Source of the DNA: Porphyridium purpureum
Lineage: Eukaryota
Assembly: GCA_008690995.1 (NCBI GenBank)
Contig: VRMN01000006.1
Span: 930,001-975,138 of the forward strand
Direction of reading: 5' to 3'
DNA length: 45,138 nucleotides
The first letter of the stretch is position 1. The number at the start of each line of letters is the position of its first letter. The notes under the pieces are model-generated. The model was not told the DNA's origin. It saw only the letters and a list, made by a program, of their open reading frames with translations, and did no database searches. Made by a program: the position numbers and the translations under genes. Shown here piece by piece: positions 2,545 through 45,138 of the stretch.

Positions 2545-4859
2545 CCACCGATTGACCAAGGGAAACCTAGTCTTGGATTACCTGAACAGCTTGATTTTCG
2601 TGTGCAGAGAGAAGGGCTAGCTGCGCGGTACGCAGTTGTAGTTTAAGAGTGGCAGAGTGGGAGGAAACGAGGAAGTATATTGAAGATGTTTATTTATGCT
2701 CTTCTCAAAATCCTTTAGATACTCCAGTGCACTCCTTGTCGCTTGCCCCATGTCTGTTCCGAGCGCAAACTTTGAGCTTCGGTTTCTTTTCAATCTCCAT
2801 CAGACGCTCGTCTTTGCTTTCCGTATGCTTGACATCGTTTCGACAGATTTCTCAGGACCCTGCGTCCCTATAGACGTGAAGAACGTAAAGATGAAGTTGC
2901 TCGAATATCTTTCAAAGAAAAGAGAGTAGGATGAACAGAAGTCCAAAGCATGTGCGTTGATCGTGGGATAGCCAAGCCCCGTATCCATCGATGCAACCAT
3001 GCGTGCTGAAGGGCATGTTGAGATCGCAGCAGCAGTGAATGACGCACTGAAGCTCGCCGAACAAAGATTGGCAGTTCATGTGACAGGAGGCTCGAGCGGA
3101 CCGATAAAAATCAGCAACGTGTTAGTGACATGTATCTTAGGGTAGCAGTAGAGCCTGGCGAGAGTACGATACAGTTTTGTGCCAGATTTGACGCAACTGC
3201 ATGTATCATGAAATCAGTGGGCGAATTGACAAGTGACACGGAGAGATGCGTGGTTGACTTCACTGACAAAATAGAAGTGTCCGGTTGCTATCGACAGATA
3301 ATTGTGCAAGTGATGAACAGTCCCGTCTCCATGGATACTGTTGATGTAGCTGTGAGCGTCGTGTCAGTGCACAAAAGGCTATCGTAGCCCGCAGTGCCAG
3401 ACGGAAGATTTTATTTATAGCTGAAGAAAAGGCTGTCAGTAACGAAGGCCACAACAAGCAAACTGAGAATGCACCGAAAAGGGAGCAGCCAAAACCGAAT
3501 CGCACTCGATTGGGTGCGGAAAGCGTGGTTTTATACATATCGACTGCCAGTAGTCAGACAGGGTCGAGGCGCTCCAAAAGAAAGTGGAAGACATGAAACG
3601 AAAATAGCGCAGCGAATTGCAAGACAAATGTATGATGCAACAGGGGCTTGCGAAGGAGGGAGGGATTCTCAGTAGTACGTCGACTTCGGAAAGTGTGTTA
3701 CAATGCGATGCGTCGCAGTCGAAGCGGTGAGCGGCTACCTTGGCTGATAGGGCAGCCTTCCCCAAATCTGAGATCGATTTGGATAGCGGTTTGTTAGACC
3801 ACGTGTTTAGCAACGGTCACTTGGTTGTGAATAGCCGACTTGCGTCGCAAATTTTATCATTCAGCAGGATAACCAAGCGAAAACTTAGAGGACAAAGCCG
3901 TTTTTAAATATACGATCGTGCGCAGACACTTCGACATTCATGACGATGCTGCAACTTTCATGGGTTAGGTCGCGTACGCGAAATAAGTAGGCCAGGGTCG
4001 CATCCGACAAATGGATGAGGACCCATGCGTAGAAGACAACGCGGAAGAAGCGGGGCCCGTAGCAGCAGCACGCTCACGCGAATGCTTCACTTGCGACACG
4101 AGCAACCATTTCTAGTGCGACTGTGACGTACTGCTGATGAATGACGAGATGACTGAACGGATACGAGCCGAGCAGTAGAGGAAGGTGCGCTTGGCGAGAC
4201 GCGACACGGGCGGACGTGGGCCGGAGCTGGCCGGGGCGACGCAGCAGCAGCTGCGAGCCGCTCTTGACGCGTTGAAGAGTAATGCCGATGCATGACGGTG
4301 CGCGATGTGGCCCGTGAGCTCCGGTGGTAAGATACCTCTAGGTCTCGACACCTGCTCAGTTGCGCACGTCATGAACATAAGGAACTTGTTGATCCGGTAG
4401 AAAAAGTTGAAACATATTGGCTACTATCCGGTATTGACGCACGGGCGAGCGAGCTAGCCATCGATCTTGGGGGTGAGAAGGCCTGGACATGGCGTAAGTC
4501 TATGAAAGCCTGGCAGGCAACGTACTGCCAATGACCAAGCTGGACGCGGAAGGGCATGTGGTACGATTCGACGCGGATGAGATCTGCCTTGGCGCGCACC
4601 TGCCAAACGCGAAACGCTGGTTGGTCTTCACACCGAATGTGCACGGGATGTACACTGCGAGGGTGTGCCGAGCAGATCTCGTGCACACGACGGACCCAGA
4701 ATTCGAAAAAGGGGGCACGAGTAAAGAAGGCTGGAGCAGTTGCCGGGCGGGCCCATCGTTCGCCAAGGCCGGGGCCTCGAGCTTAGTCACAACGGTCGCA
4801 GTAAAGCGAGAGGCGGAGAAATTGATATCTTCTAAGATTCGCGGGAAGCGTAGGCACAA

Positions 4860-15556: not shown

Positions 15557-16994
15557 AAGTGCGACCAAATCGGATAGGGGACAGTACCTTTTTTCAAGTT
15601 TTACAGGTAAAATGATCTGCTTTACTATAAAAAGGATAGAGGTCCGGTGAACAGGGAATATGAAGGAGGTCAAAACGGATAGGGGACACGGCACATTTCT
15701 GGCCATTACTCAGCCATAGAGAATCGGAATTGGTCGCGGTTTCCTTGCACGCACGCGCCTCAAAGATACGCACAGTTAAATATTCGTTTCGGCAGCGACG
15801 CGTACAAATTGGCCATCACAGGCTGGTCCAAAGTCTCCCAAGCCTGTAAAATGGCATTCTTGAGCTCTAGCACCGTCTGATACTGCCTTGCACCCTCGTA
15901 AACCTTGCGCGCTAGTATCCCCCACAGGTTTTCGATAATATTGAAGTCCGGCGAGTACGCTGGCCAGTCTAGAAGCTCCACATTCTCGTCATTCATGAAA
16001 TTCTTAACCAGGCGACTTGTGTGCACTGGCGCGTTATCCTGCTGAAAAACCATGTTCGGGCCCACCATCTGACGGCAACGGTTCAGCAGTGTCCTCTCGA
16101 AGCATGGAAACATATTTTGCAGCCGTAAATGACCCCTAAATAAAATGCCGGTGAATCTTTCCTCTTGCAGAAATTGCACCCCAAACCATGCATCCACCGC
16201 CGCCGGAATGTCGCGACTGAAGTTCTGGAACGTCCGCCGCACGCTCAACCCACGTCTTGTGGAAACCATCGGGTCCGTCCAGGTTGAACTTCTTTTCGTC
16301 AGTGAACACAATTGCGGCCCAATTGGTCTGTTCCAGCTGATGATGCCTGGCCCAGGCCAGCCTCTTAAGCTTGCGATTGAGTGCCAGTGGCGGACAAGCT
16401 GGAATTTTGCGGTATGCATGCGTGACACTCATTGCCTTCCTGATTGTCGTCAAACTTTGGATTGGTTTAGCTCCACGAATTCGCAGAGCTGCTTGAACCT
16501 GACGTGCCGTGTGAATGTTCGGAAGCTTGGCGATGTTAAAAATCTTCGTTTTGACTGCCTCAGTCAGCTTTAAATCGTTCACATTGGCATATTTCTGGCA
16601 GTAGTCGTTTGGAGCCGACAAATAGCGGGAAACCACGTTCTTCGAGCGCCCAATTTTGGTCGCAATGGCTCTCACGCTGTTGCTCGACTCTCGGAGACCC
16701 TGGATACGTCCTTTCCCCTCGCCCGTAAGGCCAATATTGCGCCCCATGGAGTCAAAATGGAGCTCATTACGAGCTGCGATGGATCCACACTTTTCCGCTT
16801 ACACTGAACCGCCAATGTCCGAGATATTTCGCTTCCACGCAGTGTCCCCTATCCGTTTTGAGCCACAAATTTCGTCATAACCGTTGCAGACGAACCCCGC
16901 CGTTCTACTTTTATAGCAAAAGATCAAAATTTACCATTAATTAACTATTTTTTCTGAAACATTTGACTGTCCCCTATCCGATTTGGTCGCACCT
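15557..16994 (-). mobile_element. Tc1/mariner (Tc3-like, DD34E) DNA transposon, family A copy 1, with IR/DR-type ends
   Basis: TIR core GTGCGACCAAATCGGATAGGGGACAGT at 15559-15585 and its reverse complement at 16966-16992. TA at 16995-16996 (left side reads TG). Inner CGGATAGGGGACAC repeats at ~15676 and inverted at ~16842. Confidence 0.92.
15760..16747 (-). pseudogene. Tc3-like transposase with frameshift/stop near 16100-16140
   Basis: HTH start MGRNIGLT..SVRAIATKIGRSKNVVSRYL; VFTDEKKFNLDGPDG; GGGGCMVWGAIS; in the second frame FQQDNAPVH-(D34E)-WPAYSPDFNIIENLW. Confidence 0.92.
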
Positions 16995-17059
16995 TAGGTT
17001 GTCCCATTCACGGTAAAAGCGATCAGGGTCAGGTGGCAAGGTGACAAAGGTGGTTGAAG

Positions 17060-17195
17060 ACGAAGCTATCAAGACCGCTCGTACTTGAGACGCCTGATTC
17101 AAACATCATGTTCAGCGGTGTCCTAAGACACCGTGCATCGGGTTTCCCCGGCAGGGTCAGGCTCCAATGCTGGGGAAAGAAATCCCCAGCGCTTT
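17060..17195 (-). ncRNA. Candidate Fanzor omegaRNA scaffold overlapping and following the Fanzor stop codon
   Basis: Four tandem stem-loops: 17169-17190 (8-bp stem), 17139-17150 (CGGG-GAAA-CCCG on the minus strand), 17116-17133 (7-bp stem, 4-nt loop), 17069-17088 (5-bp stem). The position matches known TnpB/Fanzor omegaRNA loci. Boundaries are inferred. Confidence 0.55.
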
Positions 17196-18490
17196 GTGAT
17201 TGCGCAAGAAAATATTTTTTGCGCCATTGATATTGCGGTCCATGACCGCTTCACACGTACTAGAACGGCACCTAGAAGTCTTAGCGCCGCCCAGATTCGC
17301 GTGTTTGGTTCCCTACGCGTTGCACGTGTTTAAGGTATAGGTCTCATTGACAAGCACCTGTTTCGAAGTGCTTTTCGTGCATTAAATGGAATTCGTCTTT
17401 GGACGCGGTATTAGCCCTAGGGGAACATCTGACGCGCTACCTTGGAACGTTTCTTGTGTTCACGACGGCGGACCATGTTGGAAACCGCGAACGTGGGCAA
17501 CAGGATAAGGTCACACTCGCGCACCAGGAATGCGGTGATTTACTTGTGGACCTCATCCACTAGGTTGCATATACGGTCATGTTCACAGCGTGCGGCTGGG
17601 CGCAGCGCGCAGCGCCGGTGCGCGTTCTCCACGGTTGCAATCTTGGACATCAAAATCGTCCAAGCCCTTGCAGAGTCGGAAAAAGCGACCGATGTCGCCA
17701 ACTCCCCACGGATATAGCGCGACTCTGACTCGGGTCGAAAAGCGTCTGGAGGTTCGGACGCCCGGGTCTAATGTAACAAGACGCTGTTGCACATCACTTT
17801 GACTTTGGTTTTCGGCCGTGTTTTGAGCTGGCGATTGTTGCTGTTGCTGTCGCAGTTGCTGTCGCAGTTGCTGCCGTGGTAACAGTTCCGGCTTTAGGCT
17901 GAGCGGTGTGTACCTGTGTGGTATGCACAGATACAACTTGTTCGTCGGTGTTCGCTGCAGACGACAATACATATTACTGTGCTCACACGACACAGCGACA
18001 CCTCGACCTGTCCACAACCACACTGGTGCGGTCCACGGCAGCTACAGAAAAACGCAGTCTGCGTGTTGCTCGATCCATTCCTTGCGAATATAAATAGACT
18101 CACTCGCGTGAGCCTTTCGTGAGCGAAAACCGAGCCTGAGATGCGATGCATTTCCCCCTGCCACATTGCTGTGGCATGCTTCAAACGCCGCAATTGCATC
18201 CGCACACGGCCCATCCCGAATACCATATGGAATAGACCTGAGCCACGGGTTGGCACCGACATTCTCACTGCTGTTGTTCACCAGCTTAAACCGCAGATAC
18301 TGTACCCAGCTCACGGTGGTAACACCACTTCGCCGACCTGCGTCCGCCGCTGGACTGATTAGAAGCGCGACGCAGTGATTATACGTCCACCGAGCAGCAC
18401 CGAACAGCTGAAGTATACGCTGATGGTCCACTCGGCGGACGGGACTCACCTTGAATTTTGAGGCGGCTATAGCTTCGCCCCACCGCGTTT
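17157..18490 (-). pseudogene. Fanzor2 / IS607-TnpB-like RNA-guided endonuclease, decayed
   Basis: Reconstructed across frames: KFKVSP..HQRILQLFGAARWTYN; NPWLRSIPYGIRDGPCADAIAAF..LGFRSRK..SESIYIRK; CRLQRTPTNKLYLCIP; ENQ..LVTLDPGVRT/QTLFDP (RuvC-I); WGVGDIGRFFRLCKGLDD/LMSK; DRICNLVDEVHK*ITAFLVRECDLILLPTF.VSNMV; SKVARQM; VNETYTLNTCNA*G..LGGAK..C...C; MDRNINGAKNIFLR. Confidence 0.9.
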
Positions 18491-18929
18491 AACCGCCGTT
18501 ATTTCCTTGTCACACGGCAGCTGTAGACGCCCTTCCGCGCCCACCCGCATCTCCGGGAGCTGATTTCCAACCGATGTTCGTGGCCAGGTTACGGGAAGGA
18601 CTGATGAGCTAGCCCGTCACGCGCCGATCGGCCACCGCTTCCTTACCTTGCACACTGTTGAAAAAGCGAACTCGCCCGATGATGGACGATTGAGGGGGCG
18701 CGAGCGAGCGTACGACCTGCTGATTAGCAAGAGGTCGGCGCGACCGGTAACCGGAACGAGAGCGACCCGACCGGACGGTCGCGCGGAGGGTGCGATGGTC
18801 CCGGCCTTCGCGGCTGCTCTAAAGGGCTGGCGCAGCCGCGCGGAGCAGTATTTGCCTGTCTTTAGAGTTAGAGGCTTCAGTATTTATCATCGGAATTTAT
18901 TGGTACTATAAAAGAGGCTTCTCGGAACA

Positions 18930-19406
18930 ATGGCGTTTGCTTATAGTGGAGCGGTTGCACCTGTGGGTCCGGGCTTATTGGATTTTCCACACACACGAAA
19001 CCACGTCGATTTTGTGCGCGAGCAGAATGCGCCGTCCGCGTACTCTTTCGACGCGGCCGCGGTTAGCGACCAGGTCAACGCTGAGATGGCAGCCGATGCT
19101 TTGGACCAGAATGGTCTTGCTTCCTCCTGGTCACCCCGCCATACTCGCTCGCCGTCGCCTTGCCGAAGGACGCTCTGGCACAGGCGCCGCTTTGCTCTGC
19201 GACTCGCCCGCCGTGCCGCTCGCCGCCCGCGTGCGTGCGCGCATCTTGAGACGGAGACACGCCTCCTTCGCATCGTGTCGCGCGATGTTCTTGTTCAAGT
19301 GCGAGCCAGCCAAACTTCTTCCACGACAATTGAAACCTCTGGCAACGTGCATAAACATCGTGAAATAAAAGCTGTGTTTTTGATTTCAGGGGTTTGCAGG
19401 TTCTAA
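18930..19406 (+). CDS. Hypothetical protein (orphan ORF, may be non-coding)
   Basis: 158-aa ORF with ACAATGG start context and TATAAAAG at 18907 in an AT-rich patch; no recognisable domain. Confidence 0.25.
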   Translation: MAFAYSGAVAPVGPGLLDFPHTRNHVDFVREQNAPSAYSFDAAAVSDQVNAEMAADALDQNGLASSWSPRHTRSPSPCRRTLWHRRRFALRLARRAARRPRACAHLETETRLLRIVSRDVLVQVRASQTSSTTIETSGNVHKHREIKAVFLISGVCRF

Positions 19407-19938
19407 GGAAAAAAATCAACTGCTATAAAGCGTCTTACCAACTCAACTTTCTTGCTGTCTGCGCGCATCCAGCCCGGCTGCGATGTGCCCTGACCCACAT
19501 AGATGCCTCACGGGTGCTCTGCCTTTTGATGGACCACAACTACACTTTAATTCGACATTGCAAACCACGACATACCCTTTCGCTCGCAGAGGATGCTCCA
19601 TGGAACACGTCTCGGCATGGGTCGTTGCCTGCCGTGTGTGTGCGGACACGCGCGCATCAATCTTCCCACCTGGAATCCGAAAACGGTTTCATTTCAAATC
19701 TATCGGTTAACCGTTAAACCGATGTGGCGGAGAAAATTAAGTTTTTGCTGACTCGCACATCAACCGGAAAGTGACAGACATGTGGCGCGCGCAGGGTGAA
19801 GATTGGCACGACAAGACGAACGCGAAGAATCGTAATCGTTTCCACGCCATCCTCTCTGGTCGAACCTAGCAGCCAGAGGCAACCTCGCTGGTCCGCGGCG
19901 TCGGCTGATCACGTGGCGTCGTTCGCACCGGGATAGTG

Positions 19939-36103: not shown

Positions 36104-37998
36104 CATTGCAGCAATTTGAGCGATAGCATCTGTTTTTGCCTCGCAACTACAGCAACTGGGAAAGCGGTGAGGCAAAACTCTAGTGTATCGGCGTAGAGCC
36201 TGTCTAAACACGCGGTGGCGTGCGGGGACTCGTGCGAAAATGACACGGGCAACCTGCTCGTGACCAAAGGTGACCATTATGGCGTTCGTGAAAAGCAAGG
36301 CATTATCGAGGTGCGTAACTCGGGACACCCTGTCATGGTAATCACGCGACACTATGATTTTTCTGCTGGCCACGGAGTATTTCTGAACGCCCCTTTTTTT
36401 CGCCGTGAGCGCTGAAAAGCTGCTTCCATGTCCAGCGCGCTCGAGAGTACAGCCGAAATTCTGTTTGTGCCACTTTGCATCGGCCGTGGCAGAGGGCTGG
36501 TTCGCAAAGCACCCACATGACACCAATCATTGTTTGTACTATCCATCGAATTTATCATGCTGCCAGGACGACTTGGATGACCATGTGTGGCGACGGTAGC
36601 CTTCAATTCCGTGGACGTTAAACAGCAGATCACTTGCGGAAGTGGAGATGTGGAGTGCGTACATGCACGTGACAGGCGCGACTGGACAGGCAAAGTCGGC
36701 ATTGACGGTCTTTGGCAAGCTTCATGATCATCACGGTACTTCGCTCGACATGCCAAACTAACTGTTAGGAACAAATGTGCTGCGTTGCAGCAAATGGAAC
36801 GCGCTTCCGCCAGGGCTCGTGGCTGAGATACTTGAGTACATCCACTAGCACTTGATCAAATCTGATGCAGAGCCGATTCTGCATCATCGACACGCCAAGT
36901 ATGATGACCTGCTTGAGCGCCGCATCAAGAATGTGACCAGGCAAGGCGAGACCGGTCTTGGCCCCACGGTCATGGCGGGGCTATTTCAGGCCAATAGTTC
37001 GCGAATCAGGGTAATTGCTGATGAAATCCGCTGAACTCTTGAACTGCAAGAACGCGCCGATACGGCCGCACTTCAAGCCCGGAAGTCAGCATCGGATGCT
37101 CAGATGTTGCCTGGATTCTTTTCGATGTCCTTGTCTGTTTCTGACGTTGTGTCAAAATGTGAACCGGTATCAAAAGCACAGCGACGAGTGCAGGGGCACG
37201 CAAGTCACATCGGATGACCAGAATAATGGCAGGAACGCAATCGGCACAGCTCTAGAGGGAAATGGCCGGTTTCGTGTCGGCGGTAGCCACGCCGCCGCAG
37301 CATTATCGCTGGATTGCTTGTCCTGGTGCCCAGGGCTCAGACAGTCAGACGAACGGCTCGGATAAAGCTTGCAGTGGAAAGTCAAAATCCGAGCTCGCGA
37401 GCTGGCATTGAAGGGACCTGCATCTTCTTGTTCTGGTCTGGGACGATGAGGAAGGTTGGATTTGCAATTACCTTGTGCTTTGAGTCTTTGCTTCGCTACG
37501 CGGCAGTGCATATCTCGCGCTTCGAATAATTTGGACGTAGAACCTTGTAGGCGTTCTTGCGTGAGGTGGACCGATCTTCCTCACGAAGTCATTCAAAAGC
37601 ACAGGAAGGCTGTCGCATCCGCTGTGTCTTTTCCGTGAGAAAAGTCACTACAAGCAGCTTCGCCCGGAATGCTTTTTTTCTTGCGCGCTGAATCTGCTCC
37701 CGCGCGCGGCTATCCAAAGTTCATTCGGCGTGGTGGAACTGTGGGCGCTTCCGAGTTGCAGATGCGCAAGTTTGAGTAGGCGGCTGTTGTACCCGCGAGG
37801 CTGCGGTCGCAGCGAGAGCGACGTTTCACCAGTTGGGTCCACCACATTCTCATGTTGTCACTTATCCTTCGTCTTTGCTCGCGGTGACAGTGGTCAATGC
37901 CTTTACATGATTGTTATGATGGCAAGTTAAGGCATGTATTGACTTGGCAATGTCTGCAGTCTGTAATCCGGGTTTTCAGGATTTAGTATTAGCTACTA

Positions 37999-39541
37999 CA
38001 GTCCTGGCCAAAATGTTTGCAACACCCTCATAAAAAGTGAAATTCGTGTAAAAGTGAAGAATCTTGATAGACAAGGGTATGCTTTGAGCACGCCAATCGA
38101 TCGCGCGTCCCAAGAAACACGGGATCGTCCAACCGGGAGGAAAAGGCAAGGAAAGAGCGCATGGGCAATGGAGACAGCAAAAAGGGGGTATTGGCGAGGG
38201 GCGCAGGTTTTGGAACGTAACAAAGAAACACGAAGATCAAGAAGGATGAGACTTTAGTACTTGGTGTGGTGGCCGCGCGCGTCTAGTACAGCTTGAAGAC
38301 GGCGAGGCATGGACTCCAAAAGTGGAACTACGTACTTTTGGGCCTCGGTCGCCCACGCCGCAAGGACGGCAGCCTTAAGTTCTGCGACGCGCTGCGAACT
38401 GGCGGCCTTTTCGGTAAACCACGCGCGACAAGACGCCCCAAATGTTTTCAATTGGGTTAAGGTCCGGAGACCTTGCAGGCCACGGCAGCACAGTGACGCC
38501 GAGTGCGTCGAGCCACGCCTTGGTCGAGTTGGCCGTATGTGCCGGGGCATTGTCTTGCTGGAAAGTGAAATTGAAGTCATACATTTCCAGGCCGAACGGA
38601 AGCAAGGCTTCCAGCAAGACTTGTTGATACTTAACGGCATTCAAGCCACCCTCGACGAAGACGGCCATTGTTAGGCCGCGCAGGGACATACCGGCCCACA
38701 TGTGAACCTTGCCACCTCCAGAGTGCTGGCGCCTGGCGTACGAACTTGACTTAGCGCGACAGTCGACCCATCGCTGCGAGGAGCCGAACGGACCATCGCA
38801 GCTCCAAATCTTCTCGTCTGAAAAGACCACTTGATGCCAGAAAGCCATTGGTTTCGCAATGAATGCAGTGGCAAACGCCAATCGCTTTCTGATGTTGTCA
38901 GACGACAGCGAAGGTTTCCGCGAGACTCGCTTGTAGCGAAGAAAGCCTGCTGCTTGAAGCGTCCGACGCACTGTCCTGGCCGAGCACTGCAAGTGCAGCT
39001 CGTGAACCACCTGTCCGGACGTCAGTGCATCAACAGATACGGCGCGAATGATGCGGCGTTCCGATTTGCGACTCAAAAGCCGTTTCGGACCTGGCTTCTT
39101 GCGGACAATTCGGCGACCCCTTAACGTCAGATAACGGCTCACAGTTGCATAGAACGGCCGCGAGCGATCTGGGCGAGGCTTCAGAGCCTTCGCAATGGCT
39201 CGTACCGACAGCTCCTGGCCCGCAAGGGCGTCGATCTGCCCTTTTTTGTGTTCCAACAGCCACGGCGCCATTGTCCGGCCGTTGCGCGCTCACTTTCGAT
39301 CCGGAGACTCTCCACTTGCGCACGAGGAGATGGATCAGCCAGCGAAGATCCTTTGAGCACCTTCTGATGGTCTGGGGAAAACAAAAACGCGCGCGCCGCG
39401 CCTTGGTTCATCGTTATGCTTGATGTTCACAATGTTAAAAAAGAGTTAAAAGTAAACATTCAATCAAAATGAGCTCTTGTACTATAAGATCCAGTTCGTT
39501 GGACTAAAATGCAGATGTTGCAAAAATCTTTGCCAGGACTG
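37999..39541 (-). mobile_element. Tc1/mariner DD34E DNA transposon, family B, full length
   Basis: 26-bp TIRs CAGTCCTGGCCAAAATGTTTGCAACA vs CAGTCCTGGCAAAGATTTTTGCAACA (23/26 identical), with TA duplication at 37997-37998 and 39542-39543. Confidence 0.95.
38254..39271 (-). pseudogene. Tc1-family transposase with one frameshift near 38390
   Basis: HTH (LSVRAIAKAL), VVFSDEK, FQQDNAPAH-(D34E)-WPARSPDLNPIENIW; the canonical tail ESMPRRLQAVLDARGHHTKY is in another frame. Confidence 0.92.
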
Positions 39542-39891
39542 TACATTTTAAAACTTAGGTACCGATGCATGTGATACTATCGCTGTACGCCCCAACGGCG
39601 AGACCGACAGCGGTTCGGTCCCTGTCACCAGGGCGCCGCAACCGGTCTGGCTAGATGGATACGCTCCGTTGAGGCAGCTAGTCCGCCCGACGGCGATGAC
39701 GCGGGAGGGGGCGCGACCCCCTGACCTCCACTCGGGCGACCCCTCCGCAGGGCCGTGCCCGCACTGCAGACACGAAGAGCAGTGCAGAGGCTGTATTTAA
39801 GCGCCAGCCTCCTCTCACCTGGCGACTCGGCTCCACATGTATAGAGTCGAAAAGGAAAGGTCTTTGGGTTCAGTAAAAGGGTGGCCTCCTA

Positions 39892-41330
39892 AGGGGCGAT
39901 CAAATCAGAAAGGGGACAGTACCATTTTCCAAGTTTTACCAGTAAAATGATCTGCTTTACTATAAAAGGGAAAGAGGTCCGGTGAAAAGGGAATGTGGAA
40001 GAGGTCAAAACGGATAGGGGACACGACACAGTTCCAGCCATTACTCAGCAATGAAAGGTCGGAATTGGTCGCCCTTTCCTTGTGCGTATGCGCCTTGAAG
40101 ATACGCACAGTCAAATATGCGTTTCGGCAGCGACGCGTACAAATTGGCCATCACAGGCTGGTCCAAAGTCTCCCAAGCCAGTAAGATGGTATTTTTCAGC
40201 TCTAGCACCATCTGAAACTCCCTTGCACCCACGTAAACCTTGCGCGCTAGTATTCTCCACAGGTTCTCGATAATATTGAAGTCCGGCGAGTACGCTGGCC
40301 AGTCTAGAAGCTCCACATTCTTGTCATTCATGAAATTCTTAACCAGGCGACTTTTGTGCAGCAGCGCGATATCCTGCAGAAAAACCACGTTCGGGTCCAC
40401 CATCTGGCGGCAGCGGTCCAGCATGCCGTCATTCTGAAGCATGGAAACAGAATTGGCAGCGGCGAAGATACCGTCAATGAGTTGAAATTGCATATCTCCT
40501 GCCACAAAAATGGCGCACCGAACCGTACACCGACCGCCGCCCAAATGTCACGACCAAACGTTTGAAAGATCCCATGTACGCTCATGCCATGTCTTGTGGA
40601 AAGCATCTGGCCCATCCAGATTGCAAATTATTTCGTCCGTGACCGCAACTGTTGCCCAATTCATTCGTTCCAGCACATGCCGTCTTTTCAAGGCGAGCCA
40701 CGTGAGGTCGAATTTGAGTGTCACAGGTACTTCAGCTGGATTTCTCCCGCATGCATAGGTCAAACTCATTGCTGTCCTGATTTTCATTGAATTTAGGACC
40801 CGAATCAGACCGCAATTGCGCTGTGCAGCACGAATTTGACGGCCCTTATTTACGGGCCGAATCCTTTTGATATCAGAAGTCTTGATTTTTCATGCCTTTG
40901 TGCGGTTTGGAGCGTCCGCAGTAGAGGTACTACGTACGTGTACGATGGGAGCATCTACCTAGAACAAACCGCATTGCATGGAGCACCTAATTTGTGTCAC
41001 AACAGCTCTCACTTTTTGTCCCACTCCCAAAGGCCCTGAAAACGTCATATCTTCTCATCTGAGCAGTCAATATTGCGATGTATGGTGTCGAAATGAAGCT
41101 CTTCGCGAGAGTCGCTCGATGCGCTTTTCTCCTCTTCCTTTCCATTATCCTTTCCCGAGATATAAGGCTTCCCTTGACTGTTCCCTATCCCATTTGTGCA
41201 ACAAATTTCTTGCACTCCGGCACCATCCGCCCCGCCCCAAATATTGTCTTAGTAAAAGGTCAAAATGTAACATGAACTGTCTAATTTTTCTTAGAAATTC
41301 GACTTTCCCCTATCCGTTCTGGTCGCACCT
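39892..41330 (-). mobile_element. Tc3-like transposon family A copy 2 (degenerate)
   Basis: TA-flanked TIRs AGGGGCGATCAAATCAGAAAGGGGACAGT and CCCCTATCCGTTCTGGTCGCACCT; same length (~1.44 kb) as copy 1; LLDWPAYSPDFNIIENLW retained; NWATVAVTDEIICNLDGPD is degenerate. Confidence 0.92.
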
Positions 41331-42608
41331 TATTATATGAAGGCACACAGACCCGGACACGCCGACACGAGCGAAGGGCAAGCTGTAAATCGAGAAGGAG
41401 GACTGCGGTCAGGAGGGGAGATAGGGATATGGGGCCGCGAATTAGAAGGCGAAACAGCTGCGCGGCTGCCAGCAGGAGAAAACGAAAGTAGGGGTAAAGG
41501 GTGGGTTGCGCAAGAGTAGGAAATCAGCAGCAAAAACTCGGTCAGCATTGATACAGTTCCATGGACACTCGCAAGCAGGGTGTGCTGGCTTCGGGCCTGC
41601 TGCTCCCCTGCGTCCTCCATGTTTTCGTCGGAAGCACCCAGACCCAGGCAAGTGCAGGTATAGTCTACGGCATTGAGCACGATATCGCGGAGAAGAACAT
41701 CTTTGCCCTGGACTTTTTCGCCGGCTTGGGCATTGAGCCCAGCATCACGCTAGTCGCAAACGTGACAACGGCGGCGGCCGAGGATCCAGATTACCCAGTA
41801 CAGTGCATTGGATAGGTGAACAGGGTGACGCGCACAGGGCCTCTGTATGAATGTAGTCCGAGTGGACTGGCTTACGACGGCGACTCCCTTCTGTATTTCG
41901 CCTTATTTGACCGATTTGGCATGAAGGCATCACGATTGTGCTTGTCCTCATTCGAGACGGATTCGTTCGGGTTTGCTGCCACCCCTTGGCGGGACTGTGA
42001 CGGGCGCCGCCTTCAACCCGAATACGTACCAGTATGTGTGGATAGACCAAGGCGCGCTACAATCTGAGGGCCGTATTCTGGTCCTCCAGTTCGAGCGACT
42101 GAACAGAACGACGGGCTAGATTATGGAGCGAGTCACAAACACTATGTTCCGCACCGTGACGACGGACCCGAATGCTCCAGCTGCCGAGCTGCCTTTCACT
42201 TATCGTGGCGGAGATATAGCGATTGACGCTACCGGTATGTTGCACGGCAGCAGCGTCGGAACGGGCGATGGCTTCAAGTATTTCTTTTCCATCGACTTGA
42301 ACTATGCTGCTGGAGACCTCCGCACAACTCCCGGAACGCCGTACGCTTCCCGCCTGATCCACGCAGATCCAAAGGACTCCACTCAGGTGAGCACTTTGAC
42401 CAGGTTTGCAACTGCAGATCGGGAGGCATTTGACGCGGATGGGAGATTGATCAGCCAAAAGAGCGAGCGAGGCATCTTTAGTGTCGTGGACACTGCGACA
42501 GGCGCGAATGGTGAAGTGGGCGTCGAGGGTGTGGATTACGTCAGGCTGTTCCAGATGGGCACGCTGCACACGTTTGCAGACCTTGCGTCGGCTCTGGTCT
42601 TTGAAGCG

Positions 42609-42650: not shown

Positions 42651-42989
42651 CCATCACCGCCGCCAGCGCCAGTGCCAGTGCCAACGCCAGCGCCAGAGTT
42701 TTGCTGCTCCCCAGATGACGAAGGTGCTGAGTGCGACGTGGTAACACAATTGCCGGAAAATTACCTCGGACAGTGACGATGGGAGCTCGGATAGTGACGA
42801 TGAGAGCAAGAAGATGCCTACGAGCATTCACTACCTTTACGGTCGAGGTCGTGGCCTTGGTCACGGTCGCGGTGGACGTTCAAACTCAGGCTCCCAGTCG
42901 GACGCAGAGTCGACAGAGGTGCCATGCTGTCCGTGCACGTGCCTGAAACCGCGACCAAAGGCTCCAGCGCGTGGAAATGTAGGAAGCGT

Positions 42990-43169
42990 CAGGAGTGACA
43001 GGAGTGACAGGAGTGACAGGAGTGCCAGGAGTGCCAGGAGTGCCAGGAGTGCCAGGAGTGCCAGGAGTGCCAGGAGTGACAGGAGTGACAGCAGTGGCAG
43101 CAGTGGCAGCAGTGGCAGCAGTGGCAGCAGTGACAGCAGTGGCAGCAGTGGCAGCAGTGGCAGCAGTGG
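42990..43169. repeat. 9-bp tandem array, 20 units (CAGGAGTGA/CAGGAGTGC/CAGCAGTGG), encoding RSD/RSA/SSG
   Basis: Read directly from the sequence; unit variants occur in blocks. Confidence 0.95.
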
Positions 43170-44701
43170 TAGCGATTCGGAGTCCAACAGTAGTGGCTCG
43201 GAGAGTCACTAGAAGGATCAGTTTAACGCCAAGCTATTGAAAGTGAACCTGCAACAGTTGAAAAGACTGGAAACGTGAACGAGAAGTAAAGGATTAAGTA
43301 TTCCTTTGCAGAAATCACGTTCTTTGGGCCTGGAGCGCCTTCCGGGCCGAATGACATCGCGTGCAATGGTCAGTCTCTATTCCTTTAAATGTGTGTGCAT
43401 CAGTCACATCTGTCATCGGGTCCATGATTGAATGCCTGGTCCGATCTATGCTGTCGTTGAAGCTTTAATCTTTCCGATGTGTGGCCTCGTTTCCCATTCT
43501 GAGTTTCCCGCCAGTGCACCCAGGTCATCTGAAGAGCGGGTGCGGAAGCAAAACATGAAGGGAGAAAGATCACTTTCGTGCGAAAATGCCACACTGTGCT
43601 GCCTTGTCGAAACATCGACCAGCGCCGCGCATCACGATCTCGCGCCCGTCGCGCAAGAAATACATGGCACGAGTTCAGTTGGGTGTGTTCACCACATGGA
43701 AGCAGCTGACCAAGTTGCGCATTCGGCAAAGGGACGCCACACATGCATGCCGCAGCACACACACACACGCACACAGACGCATACAGCACGATCGTTCCGC
43801 CTGCTGAGAACCAACGACCTTGAACAACACAACCGCTGCTTCCCTCAGCCGCATTCACGTGAACGTGGCGTTATTTGTATGGGATCGATGTACAGTCACT
43901 GTACATACTCCACGAAATGTACACACGCGCGCAGACACTGTACGTGCCGCACGTGCCGCGGGTGCGTGGCACGTCGCGGAATCGCGGCGAGGCGAGCGCA
44001 CTTGTTGGCGTGCGCACAAGCGTGAGTCGCAGCGCGCGGAACGTCAACAGCACAACAGCGGTAAGGTGATGCCCACAATGACATGAATCACACACACACA
44101 TACATTTACACGCATGTAAGAGCCAAAGGACAGAGGAGAAATGCCAGAGATTTTCAAACTCGTGGCACGCGCTTGCACTGCGATGTGTACGCGAGCCGTA
44201 TTGGCTACAGAAAAAGCAGACGAAGGCGTGTGCAAACGAGCACGCGGCAAAAAAAATCCAGCAACGGAAAAATCTTCACGCTTACTCCTTGCGACACGTG
44301 GAACTGCGTGAATTGAGCACATTCCAGAGACGCCGGAAGCGTGACGACGCGTGCCGCCTGGTGCACGTGCGTATTGTGTGACGCTTTCGCTGTTGTTGTG
44401 GATTACGTGGCGCGCTTGGGAAAACAATGGTCATTGGTGTGAACAAGCTGCAGTCAGAGGATACTCAGAGCAGTGGAATGGATAGAACTCTGGCGGATAC
44501 CTGGGTTGGTTGCGTGGTAGTTGGCGGAAGGGGAAAGACTTGTTGGCACCGTGGGAATGGTTGACTGACGATCTTTCAGCCAAATGCGATGAATCTAACT
44601 GACGTATCTATCCGCAGTTTGTACTGTGGAACGTCCCAAGATCACGAGTGTCGTGGCGCAAGTTGCGACCGTCTGAAGCCTGCTTCGCGCCGCGCATCGG
44701 G

Positions 44702-44913: not shown

Positions 44914-45138
44914 ATGGACAATTGCAAGCGTCGTGCAATGGCTTCGTGGTTGCTCCTCCTTTGTGTACTGCATGTCCTCGTCCGACGCACGCAGGCCCTG
45001 TCGAATGCAGGTATTGTTTACGCCATTGAGCGCGACAACGTGCAAAAGAATATTTTTGCGCTGGACTTTTCCGCCGGTGTAGGTATGGAGCAGACTACCA
45101 CCCTGGTCGCAAACATGACAAAGGCCGCCGCCGATGAT
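44914..45138 (+). CDS. 5' part of a tandem paralog of the 41561 secreted protein (runs off the window)
   Basis: MDNCKRRAMASWLLLLCVLHVLVRRTQALSNAGIVYAIERDNVQKNIFALDFSAGVGMEQTTTLVANMTKAAADD aligns without gaps to MDTRKQGVLASGLLLPCVLHVFVGSTQTQASAGIVYGIEHDIAEKNIFALDFFAGLGIEPSITLVANVTTAAAED. Confidence 0.85.
   Translation, partial: MDNCKRRAMASWLLLLCVLHVLVRRTQALSNAGIVYAIERDNVQKNIFALDFSAGVGMEQTTTLVANMTKAAADD

Follow-up and report, generated by a model that had tools for sequence, protein, structure and literature searches.

A decayed Fanzor2 transposon copy in Porphyridium purpureum with a probable omegaRNA scaffold ending in a predicted pseudoknot strand

Within a 45,138-nt stretch of the Porphyridium purpureum genome (hereafter, the window), minus-strand positions 17192 to 17091 very probably form the omegaRNA scaffold of a dead Fanzor2 transposon of the IS607 lineage, one of many copies, and include the right end of that element. 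The scaffold is predicted to close with a 6-bp pseudoknot at 17091, and the guide would be drawn from the flank from 17090 downward. Three features expected of a Fanzor2 omegaRNA—overlap with the 3′ end of the ORF, covarying structure, and pairing between a loop and the element end—appear to be present, as judged from few and partly selected sequences. The original prediction for this DNA had proposed an omegaRNA-type scaffold that overlaps the end of a Fanzor ORF and extends as far as the right end of the element, here of IS607 lineage; a hairpin and a loop in the last codons and stop, a strong fold (z −5.4), and covariation all support that proposal.

The ORF itself (17157–19273, minus strand, 5′ end approximate) is a dead Fanzor2 of the IS607-TnpB-like type, a pseudogene split by an insert and recognizable by its catalytic D and E, its clade, and its closest match of known structure. 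It was identified by PF07282 (E 7.7e-7) and by tblastn. The closest of 29 protein matches were two P. purpureum proteins, P0001 and P0004 (68% and 70% identical), each of them broken or fused as well. Searching again with P0001 recovered no additional same-host protein among 26 matches of 295–942 residues in annotated proteins, and no second Fanzor copy was found within the window. Querying the PDB with a profile of 13 relatives returned the mimivirus Fanzor2 L79 (9b0l) as the best match (E 1e-40). Of the RuvC residues, the D of the DPG motif (17768) and the rearranged E of NET (17345) are retained, while the third D has become N at 17234 (RD to RN); one cysteine position of the C4 zinc finger is occupied by a stop. 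We consider the protein catalytically dead because of this D-to-N substitution, five in-path stops (18044, 17542, 17419, 17413, and 17315), and about five frameshifts.

Relatives were gathered with a profile of 13 homologues, yielding 75 loci from viral, 80 from metagenomic, and 80 from prokaryotic sequences. A quick tree search of 66 rows (44 selected loci, 21 proteins, and the window's longest single frame, which fills 40% of the columns) places the window in a 22-row clade with 100% SH-aLRT support, together with loci L001, L002, L076, L077, L079, and L123. The first five of these are IS607-Fanzor2 elements from metagenomes and giant-virus bins, as is L080, whose ORF is broken and which does not figure in the tree; L080 shares 60% identity with the reference and differs little from the window across the first hairpin of the scaffold. 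In DNA pattern scans of viral contigs, a 14-mer gave 120 stretches, with no Fanzor relative encoded in the fetched loci, and a gapped pattern gave 0 matches; P0001 as query recovered none of 173 candidates. The prokaryotic scan returned distant relatives only (29–45%), which were used for calibration.

The insert that splits the ORF is a solo-LTR-like sequence of 336 bp (18656–18991) in the Fanzor N-terminal region, with TG…CA ends and a 5-bp duplication (18651–55 and 18992–96). DNA contigs that lack it connect 18644 to 18992, and loose contig ends fall at 18656 and 18991; the insert is itself high-copy and is missing from other Fanzor copies. A Gln-rich low-complexity insertion also lies at about 17800–17880, between the WED region and RuvC-I; it is present in P0001 and varies among copies.

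Strong folding is limited to minus-strand positions 17195–17091 (−48.2 kcal/mol, z −5.37, with none of 200 shuffles as good), and weakens to z −3.15 (1 of 200 shuffles as good) across the full 199 nt originally put forward. Two disjoint perfect stems of at least 7 bp within 105 nt occur at only four places in the window, of which this hairpin core is one. Four motifs had been quoted from this region, and all are found on the minus strand: three hairpins, here named H1 (17190–17169), H2 (17150–17139), and H3 (17133–17116), and a TCAAG-N10-CTTGA motif (17088–17069), along with a GG at 17076–17075. H1, an 8-bp hairpin in the last codons, forms the 5′ part of the conserved scaffold; 98% of cells are paired across seven sequences and two pairs have changed on both sides, though its covariation is weaker overall, with 2 of 500 shuffles of these seven sequences reaching its score. 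A short stem, GGA/CCC here (17165–17154) and GGG/CCC in other copies, follows; the alignment with relatives and the host-copy variants suggest that it presents a pseudoknot loop, GCCUGA (17162–17157), which includes the stop codon TGA (17159–17157). H2 consists of a UGC/GCA base (17153–17134 overall), paired in 67% of cells across relatives, below the CGGG-GAAA-CCCG hairpin already quoted. H3 is a 7-bp hairpin, in place of which relatives carry a hairpin of different sequence and length. A weak and probably decayed terminal hairpin, GAACA/UGUUU (H4; 17115–17098), had been overlooked; relatives likewise have a terminal hairpin beside the pseudoknot strand. The putative scaffold closes with that strand, UCAGGC, plus one G (17097–17091), which pairing and a drop in conservation among relatives identify as the predicted scaffold end and the right end (GGCG) of the element. 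An Rfam search gave four weak matches, every one far under its gathering score. A hairpin-rich stretch within the ORF (17300–17196; z −3.6 to −3.8) was also considered as scaffold and ruled out, all six relatives examined being unstructured there (z −0.6 to +0.9).

The plus strand of the same core folds almost as well as the minus strand (z −4.88), as would be expected if the hairpins served mainly as a terminator or as recognition sites in the DNA of the transposon end rather than as a guide-RNA scaffold. However, H1 contains G-U pairs and compensatory changes, and these, like the pairing of the loop with the distant end, fit a single-stranded RNA; the same architecture has been solved as RNA in the Fanzor2 of Acanthamoeba polyphaga mimivirus, ApmFz2 (PMC11832414); we regard a DNA site or terminator as extremely unlikely.

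The original prediction had missed the defining pseudoknot, a pairing between loop and element end. In the window, GCCUGA (17162–17157) is complementary to UCAGGC (17097–17092), forming a predicted pseudoknot helix. Six of the seven close loci (L001, L002, L076, L077, L079, and L080) share a common plan: the last codons hold H1, followed by GGG-GCCUAC-CCC, two to three variable hairpins, GUAGGC, a single G, and then unlike sequence; in the exception, L123, the 5′ part is present with no complementary 3′ strand close by. The window follows this plan as GGA-GCCUGA-CCC…UCAGGC G, with two loop bases and both of their partners changed together. In an alignment of 11 sequences, comprising the window, the six clade loci, and four loci picked for an AGGCG ending (L117 being omitted for its length), all 66 of 66 cells of the 6-bp helix are paired; AU changes to GC or UA and CG to GC, AU, or UA, giving two compensated pairs. 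The covariation score was reached by none of 500 shuffles, a control that ignores relatedness among the sequences, and slid controls pair in 31–57% of cells as compared with 92%. Covariation, a check suggested with the original prediction, is present in these few and partly selected sequences, a choice that favors the invariant letters. The minimum-energy fold draws this helix as an ordinary closing stem; we infer the knotted topology by analogy. A covariance model built with the window included, so that the window's own 62.9-bit match carries no weight, recovered L078 (the same element as L002), L079, and L103 among 50 other loci, with weak matches in L086 and L339.

Because the 3′ strand of the pseudoknot ends at 17092 and relatives diverge one base later, the scaffold probably ends at 17091; the right end of the element likely lies at this position, or perhaps at 17090, within GGCG. 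A sharp conservation boundary is observed among relatives: AGGCG has a majority-base frequency of 1.0 in 12 aligned sequences, and the 20 nt that follow have one of 0.25–0.67, although five of the 12 (four of them also in the 11-sequence alignment) were picked for ending in AGGCG, and the invariance of those letters is therefore partly built in. In the sole multi-copy family with a GGCG end (L117/L120), likeness ceases 1 nt past GGCG. Boundaries were calibrated on 180 of 235 loci that could be anchored, yielding 21 multi-copy families with differing flanks. A complement of at least 5 nt ends 0–4 nt before the empirical boundary in 15 of these 21 families, and a 6-nt complement does so in nine; five-base complements are fairly frequent by chance, and the scan covered offsets of up to 4 nt. 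The remaining six families have no complement, some of them with badly estimated boundaries. A multi-copy viral Fanzor/TnpB family (L064–L071 and L075) ends in GGAGGTTA, with no pseudoknot complement by the simple test.

The element end had originally been placed around 17050–17080, with the GG at 17075–76 as a possible IS607-like end, the TCAAG/CTTGA hairpin as part of the scaffold, and the guide beyond. In favor of a scaffold ending near this GG or lower, IS607 crossover is described at GG (PMC10711439), several of the distant families examined terminate in GG, and the TCAAG-N10-CTTGA motif is present. However, the near clade terminates in GGCG, and an end at the GG would sit 16–17 nt behind the pseudoknot strand, as compared with 0–4 nt in the 15 families with such a strand, longer offsets lying beyond the range scanned. 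The segment holding the motif (17095–17060) is also unstructured relative to shuffles (z −0.32, 66 of 200 as good), and perfect 5-bp stems with loops of 3–10 nt occur about once per 100 nt in the window (476 placements), so the motif is attributable to chance and falls in the flank. Sequencing depth, described below, is by rough estimate too low in each of four runs for all copies to reach 17075. Taken with the position of the pseudoknot strand and the divergence of relatives, these data make a GG end very unlikely, and argue for the end at 17091.

Contigs in all four sequencing runs indicate many diverged host copies of the element, about 82–83% alike over long pieces of the ORF. In run X6, depth at 17128–17234 is 668, as compared with roughly 35–48, the single-copy level, for the locus's own contigs. 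Copy ends were judged from 24 of 190 loose ends and from binned depth, and variants from 40 of 724 sites. Mean depth in the bin 17021–17127 is 134, 210, 50, and 8 in the four runs; by rough estimate, an end at 17091 in every copy predicts depths of 236, 228, 66, and 13, and an end at 17075 predicts 322, 264, 93, and 16. The observed values are under even the 17091 expectation and far under that for 17075, and the bound is a soft one because of contigs breaking early; the host copies agree only roughly with an end at 17091. One X10 contig diverges from the window below 17089, the only host contig to leave there among the 24 of 190 loose ends considered. Counting against an end at 17091, an X6 contig leaving at 17115 has a similar terminal hairpin and reads …UCGG AUCAGAC U, where the pseudoknot strand has A in place of G and the last G is missing; the loop that would pair with this strand lies outside the sequence in view. 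Two X9 contigs leave at 17148, where a mixed consensus suggests a longer H3.

The relatives' boundary and the organization of described systems place the predicted guide at 17090 to about 17071, a stretch that includes the chance TCAAG/CTTGA stem and the GG. Its start is predicted at 17090 or 17089, an uncertainty of one nucleotide that arises because the right-flanking nucleotide of ISXfa1 belongs to the scaffold (PMC10711439). The earlier expectation that the guide derives from flanking DNA is retained here, while its position shifts with a boundary some 15 bases earlier. Within the window, the only other match to the predicted guide has three mismatches and is at chance level (7 of 100 shuffles). 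The rest of the flank (17070–16997) appears single-copy, with depth near the single-copy level, and lies outside the element; the flank from 17090 to 16997 shows no fold beyond chance (z +0.34). A 10-nt direct repeat, CCTGACCCTG, occurs both in the region of the pseudoknot loop (17161–17152) and in the flank at 17033–17024, about 60 nt beyond the predicted end. The flank copy is probably due to chance, but in a read-through transcript it could act as a competitor for the pseudoknot 3′ strand.

The hairpin series had been described as intact beside a heavily mutated ORF. The three named stems do pair, but the scaffold of the window copy is not fully intact and has decayed as well as the ORF, as seen from an A-C mismatch at 17163, a change at 17138, and the weak H4. 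At 17163 the minus strand has A, where other genomic copies have G (among the 40 of 724 variant sites listed), resulting in the mismatch in the loop-presenting stem; the corresponding base is G in four of the six close relatives of alignment A4 and in L079, and T in L123. At 17138, other genomic copies have G, again among the 40 of 724 variant sites listed.

This decay bears on whether the same scaffold might still be functional, its RNA having been kept by selection after the death of the ORF, with an intact Fanzor2 from elsewhere in the genome loading it in trans, as for the "ghost" loci of Spizellomyces. Ghost omegaRNAs are described as supporting SpuFz1 activity in human cells (PMC10432273), and the perfect pairing of H1 to H3 and of the pseudoknot stands out against an ORF broken by five in-path stops and roughly five frameshifts. 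However, stems chosen after the fact look more intact than they are, the loop-presenting stem carries the A-C mismatch, and H4 looks decayed; moreover, the only same-host proteins found among annotated copies, P0001 and P0004, are broken or fused. We therefore consider use in trans unlikely. Similarly improbable, in our judgment, is a broader proposal, in which an undescribed high-copy Porphyridium Fanzor2 family without an IS607 transposase, with a compact omegaRNA of about 100 nt and a recoded pseudoknot, would keep the scaffolds of its dead copies under selection as a flank-derived guide library, serving in trans an intact nuclease encoded elsewhere. The window copy is most likely a fossil, unable to carry out guided cutting itself: it can no longer act alone because its nuclease is broken and its transposase undetectable.

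The transposase in question is the IS607 serine recombinase, TnpA. In four clade loci (L002, L076, L077, and L079) a PF00239 resolvase overlaps the Fanzor N-terminus, and all eight ORFs tested match this domain. Neither tblastn, HMM, nor frameshift-tolerant searches recovered a TnpA remnant in the window (score 28.8 against a null mean of 27.7 and a positive control of 328). A remnant suspected by eye at 19240–19181 was rejected as scoring at null level, since 48 of 136 control windows reached its score. As TnpA is undetectable, the window element does not qualify as an autonomous IS607 transposon. In the same four loci, a stretch of several hundred bases is read in two frames, one for TnpA and one for a long N-terminal extension of Fanzor; the window keeps a recognizable Fanzor frame here (PFWS…STWF), and the TnpA frame is not recognizable.

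The predicted right end carries CG, the putative crossover core. At the opposite end, ACCG at 19707–19704 is a weak candidate for the left end of the element; it lies 593 nt upstream of the PFW codon, as compared with 546 nt in L077 and 583 nt in L079, and the motif is common by chance. By eye, L001, L002, L077, L079, L085, and L088 also show (A)CCG where their left ends appear to lie. These six left ends, together with the 5′-CCG TAM described for NlovFz2 of Naegleria lovaniensis (PMC10432273), form the basis on which a CCG TAM is predicted. In L002, the sequence past the right end begins like that past the apparent left end (1754–1770 and 3879–3892), with CGCGAACTT at both, and the guide of L002 might resemble its own left end; the 94 nt downstream also fold strongly (z −4.6).

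The lower coordinate of the original prediction adjoins an unrelated, independent Tc1/mariner element on the minus strand (15557–16996), recognized by DDE_3 and Tc3 HTH domains and inverted repeats, with TA at 16995–16996. A related second copy, 74% alike, lies at about 39890–41332 with no Fanzor beside it. Capture of the Fanzor by Tc1/mariner was ruled out, as the Tc1 repeats enclose 15557–16994 only and the second copy is without a Fanzor. An 11-mer, TCTTTGGGTTC, occurs shortly upstream of both related copies, and a third, different Tc1 is found at about 37997–39543. A 225-nt repeat of 75% identity (41561–41785 and 44914–45138) and a 9-bp tandem array (42949–43200) are both unrelated to the Fanzor.

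Among described systems, ApmFz2 (mimivirus L79, PDB 9b0l, from an IS607 element) is similar to the window in its DPG and rearranged E, and in a hairpin scaffold closed by a pseudoknot at its last bases and followed by a flank guide (PMC11832414; PMC10530073); its pseudoknot is described as using scaffold positions −4 to 0 (PMC11832414). It differs in a scaffold of 205 nt, as compared with about 102–105 nt in the window, and in a GGG TAM, as compared with the GGCG end and predicted CCG TAM here; additionally, the window copy is dead and its TnpA undetectable. NlovFz2 is a eukaryotic Fanzor2 likened here by its TAM, which matches the (A)CCG at the relatives' left ends, rather than by sequence comparison; it is active, whereas the window copy is inactive. 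A pseudoknot is reported as required in the IS607 TnpB of ISXfa1 and as predicted in Fanzor2, and the ISXfa1 reRNA, like the window, has three stem-loops and a pseudoknot, but it is bacterial, has a GG core, and is about 150 nt long (PMC10711439). The nearest parallels remain L001, L002, L076, L077, L079, and L080, which share with the window its clade (L080 by 60% identity only), an alignable H1, loop, and H2, and the GGCG end. They differ in pairing GCCUAC with GUAGGC, as compared with GCCUGA and UCAGGC in the window, and in lengths of 131–174 nt, as compared with 105 nt; four of the six also have an intact-looking TnpA, unlike the window.

Fanzors have been reported for rhodophyta in general (PMC10530073; PMC3627910), and in the literature open without subscription we found no Fanzor or TnpB family described for Porphyridium. 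Two P. purpureum entries labeled as Fanzor in supplementary Table S5 of one survey (PMC10711439) are other proteins, unlike Fanzors. The searchable supplements of Fanzor papers contained no member of the window's family. We take the two Table S5 entries to be TFIIH p44 and a peroxin RING protein, from their appearance.

By analogy with described systems, a transcript running through the ORF end in the active ancestor would have been processed into some 100 nt of scaffold with 11–21 nt of flank attached, and Fanzor2 would have bound this scaffold through the pseudoknot and cut DNA matching the flank beside a TAM, here predicted to be CCG. Excision by the serine recombinase at a CG dinucleotide would leave an empty donor site that is itself a target for cutting, and cleavage of that site would favor retention of the element. 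The window adds a putative family of Fanzor2 from a red alga, short in its scaffold and with CCG as its predicted TAM, along with a usable rule, that the guide be located by the pseudoknot and not by a GG or the last hairpin. The intact-looking relatives L002, L076, and L077, which carry TnpA and have defined scaffold ends, may be assayed as compact RNA-guided nucleases.
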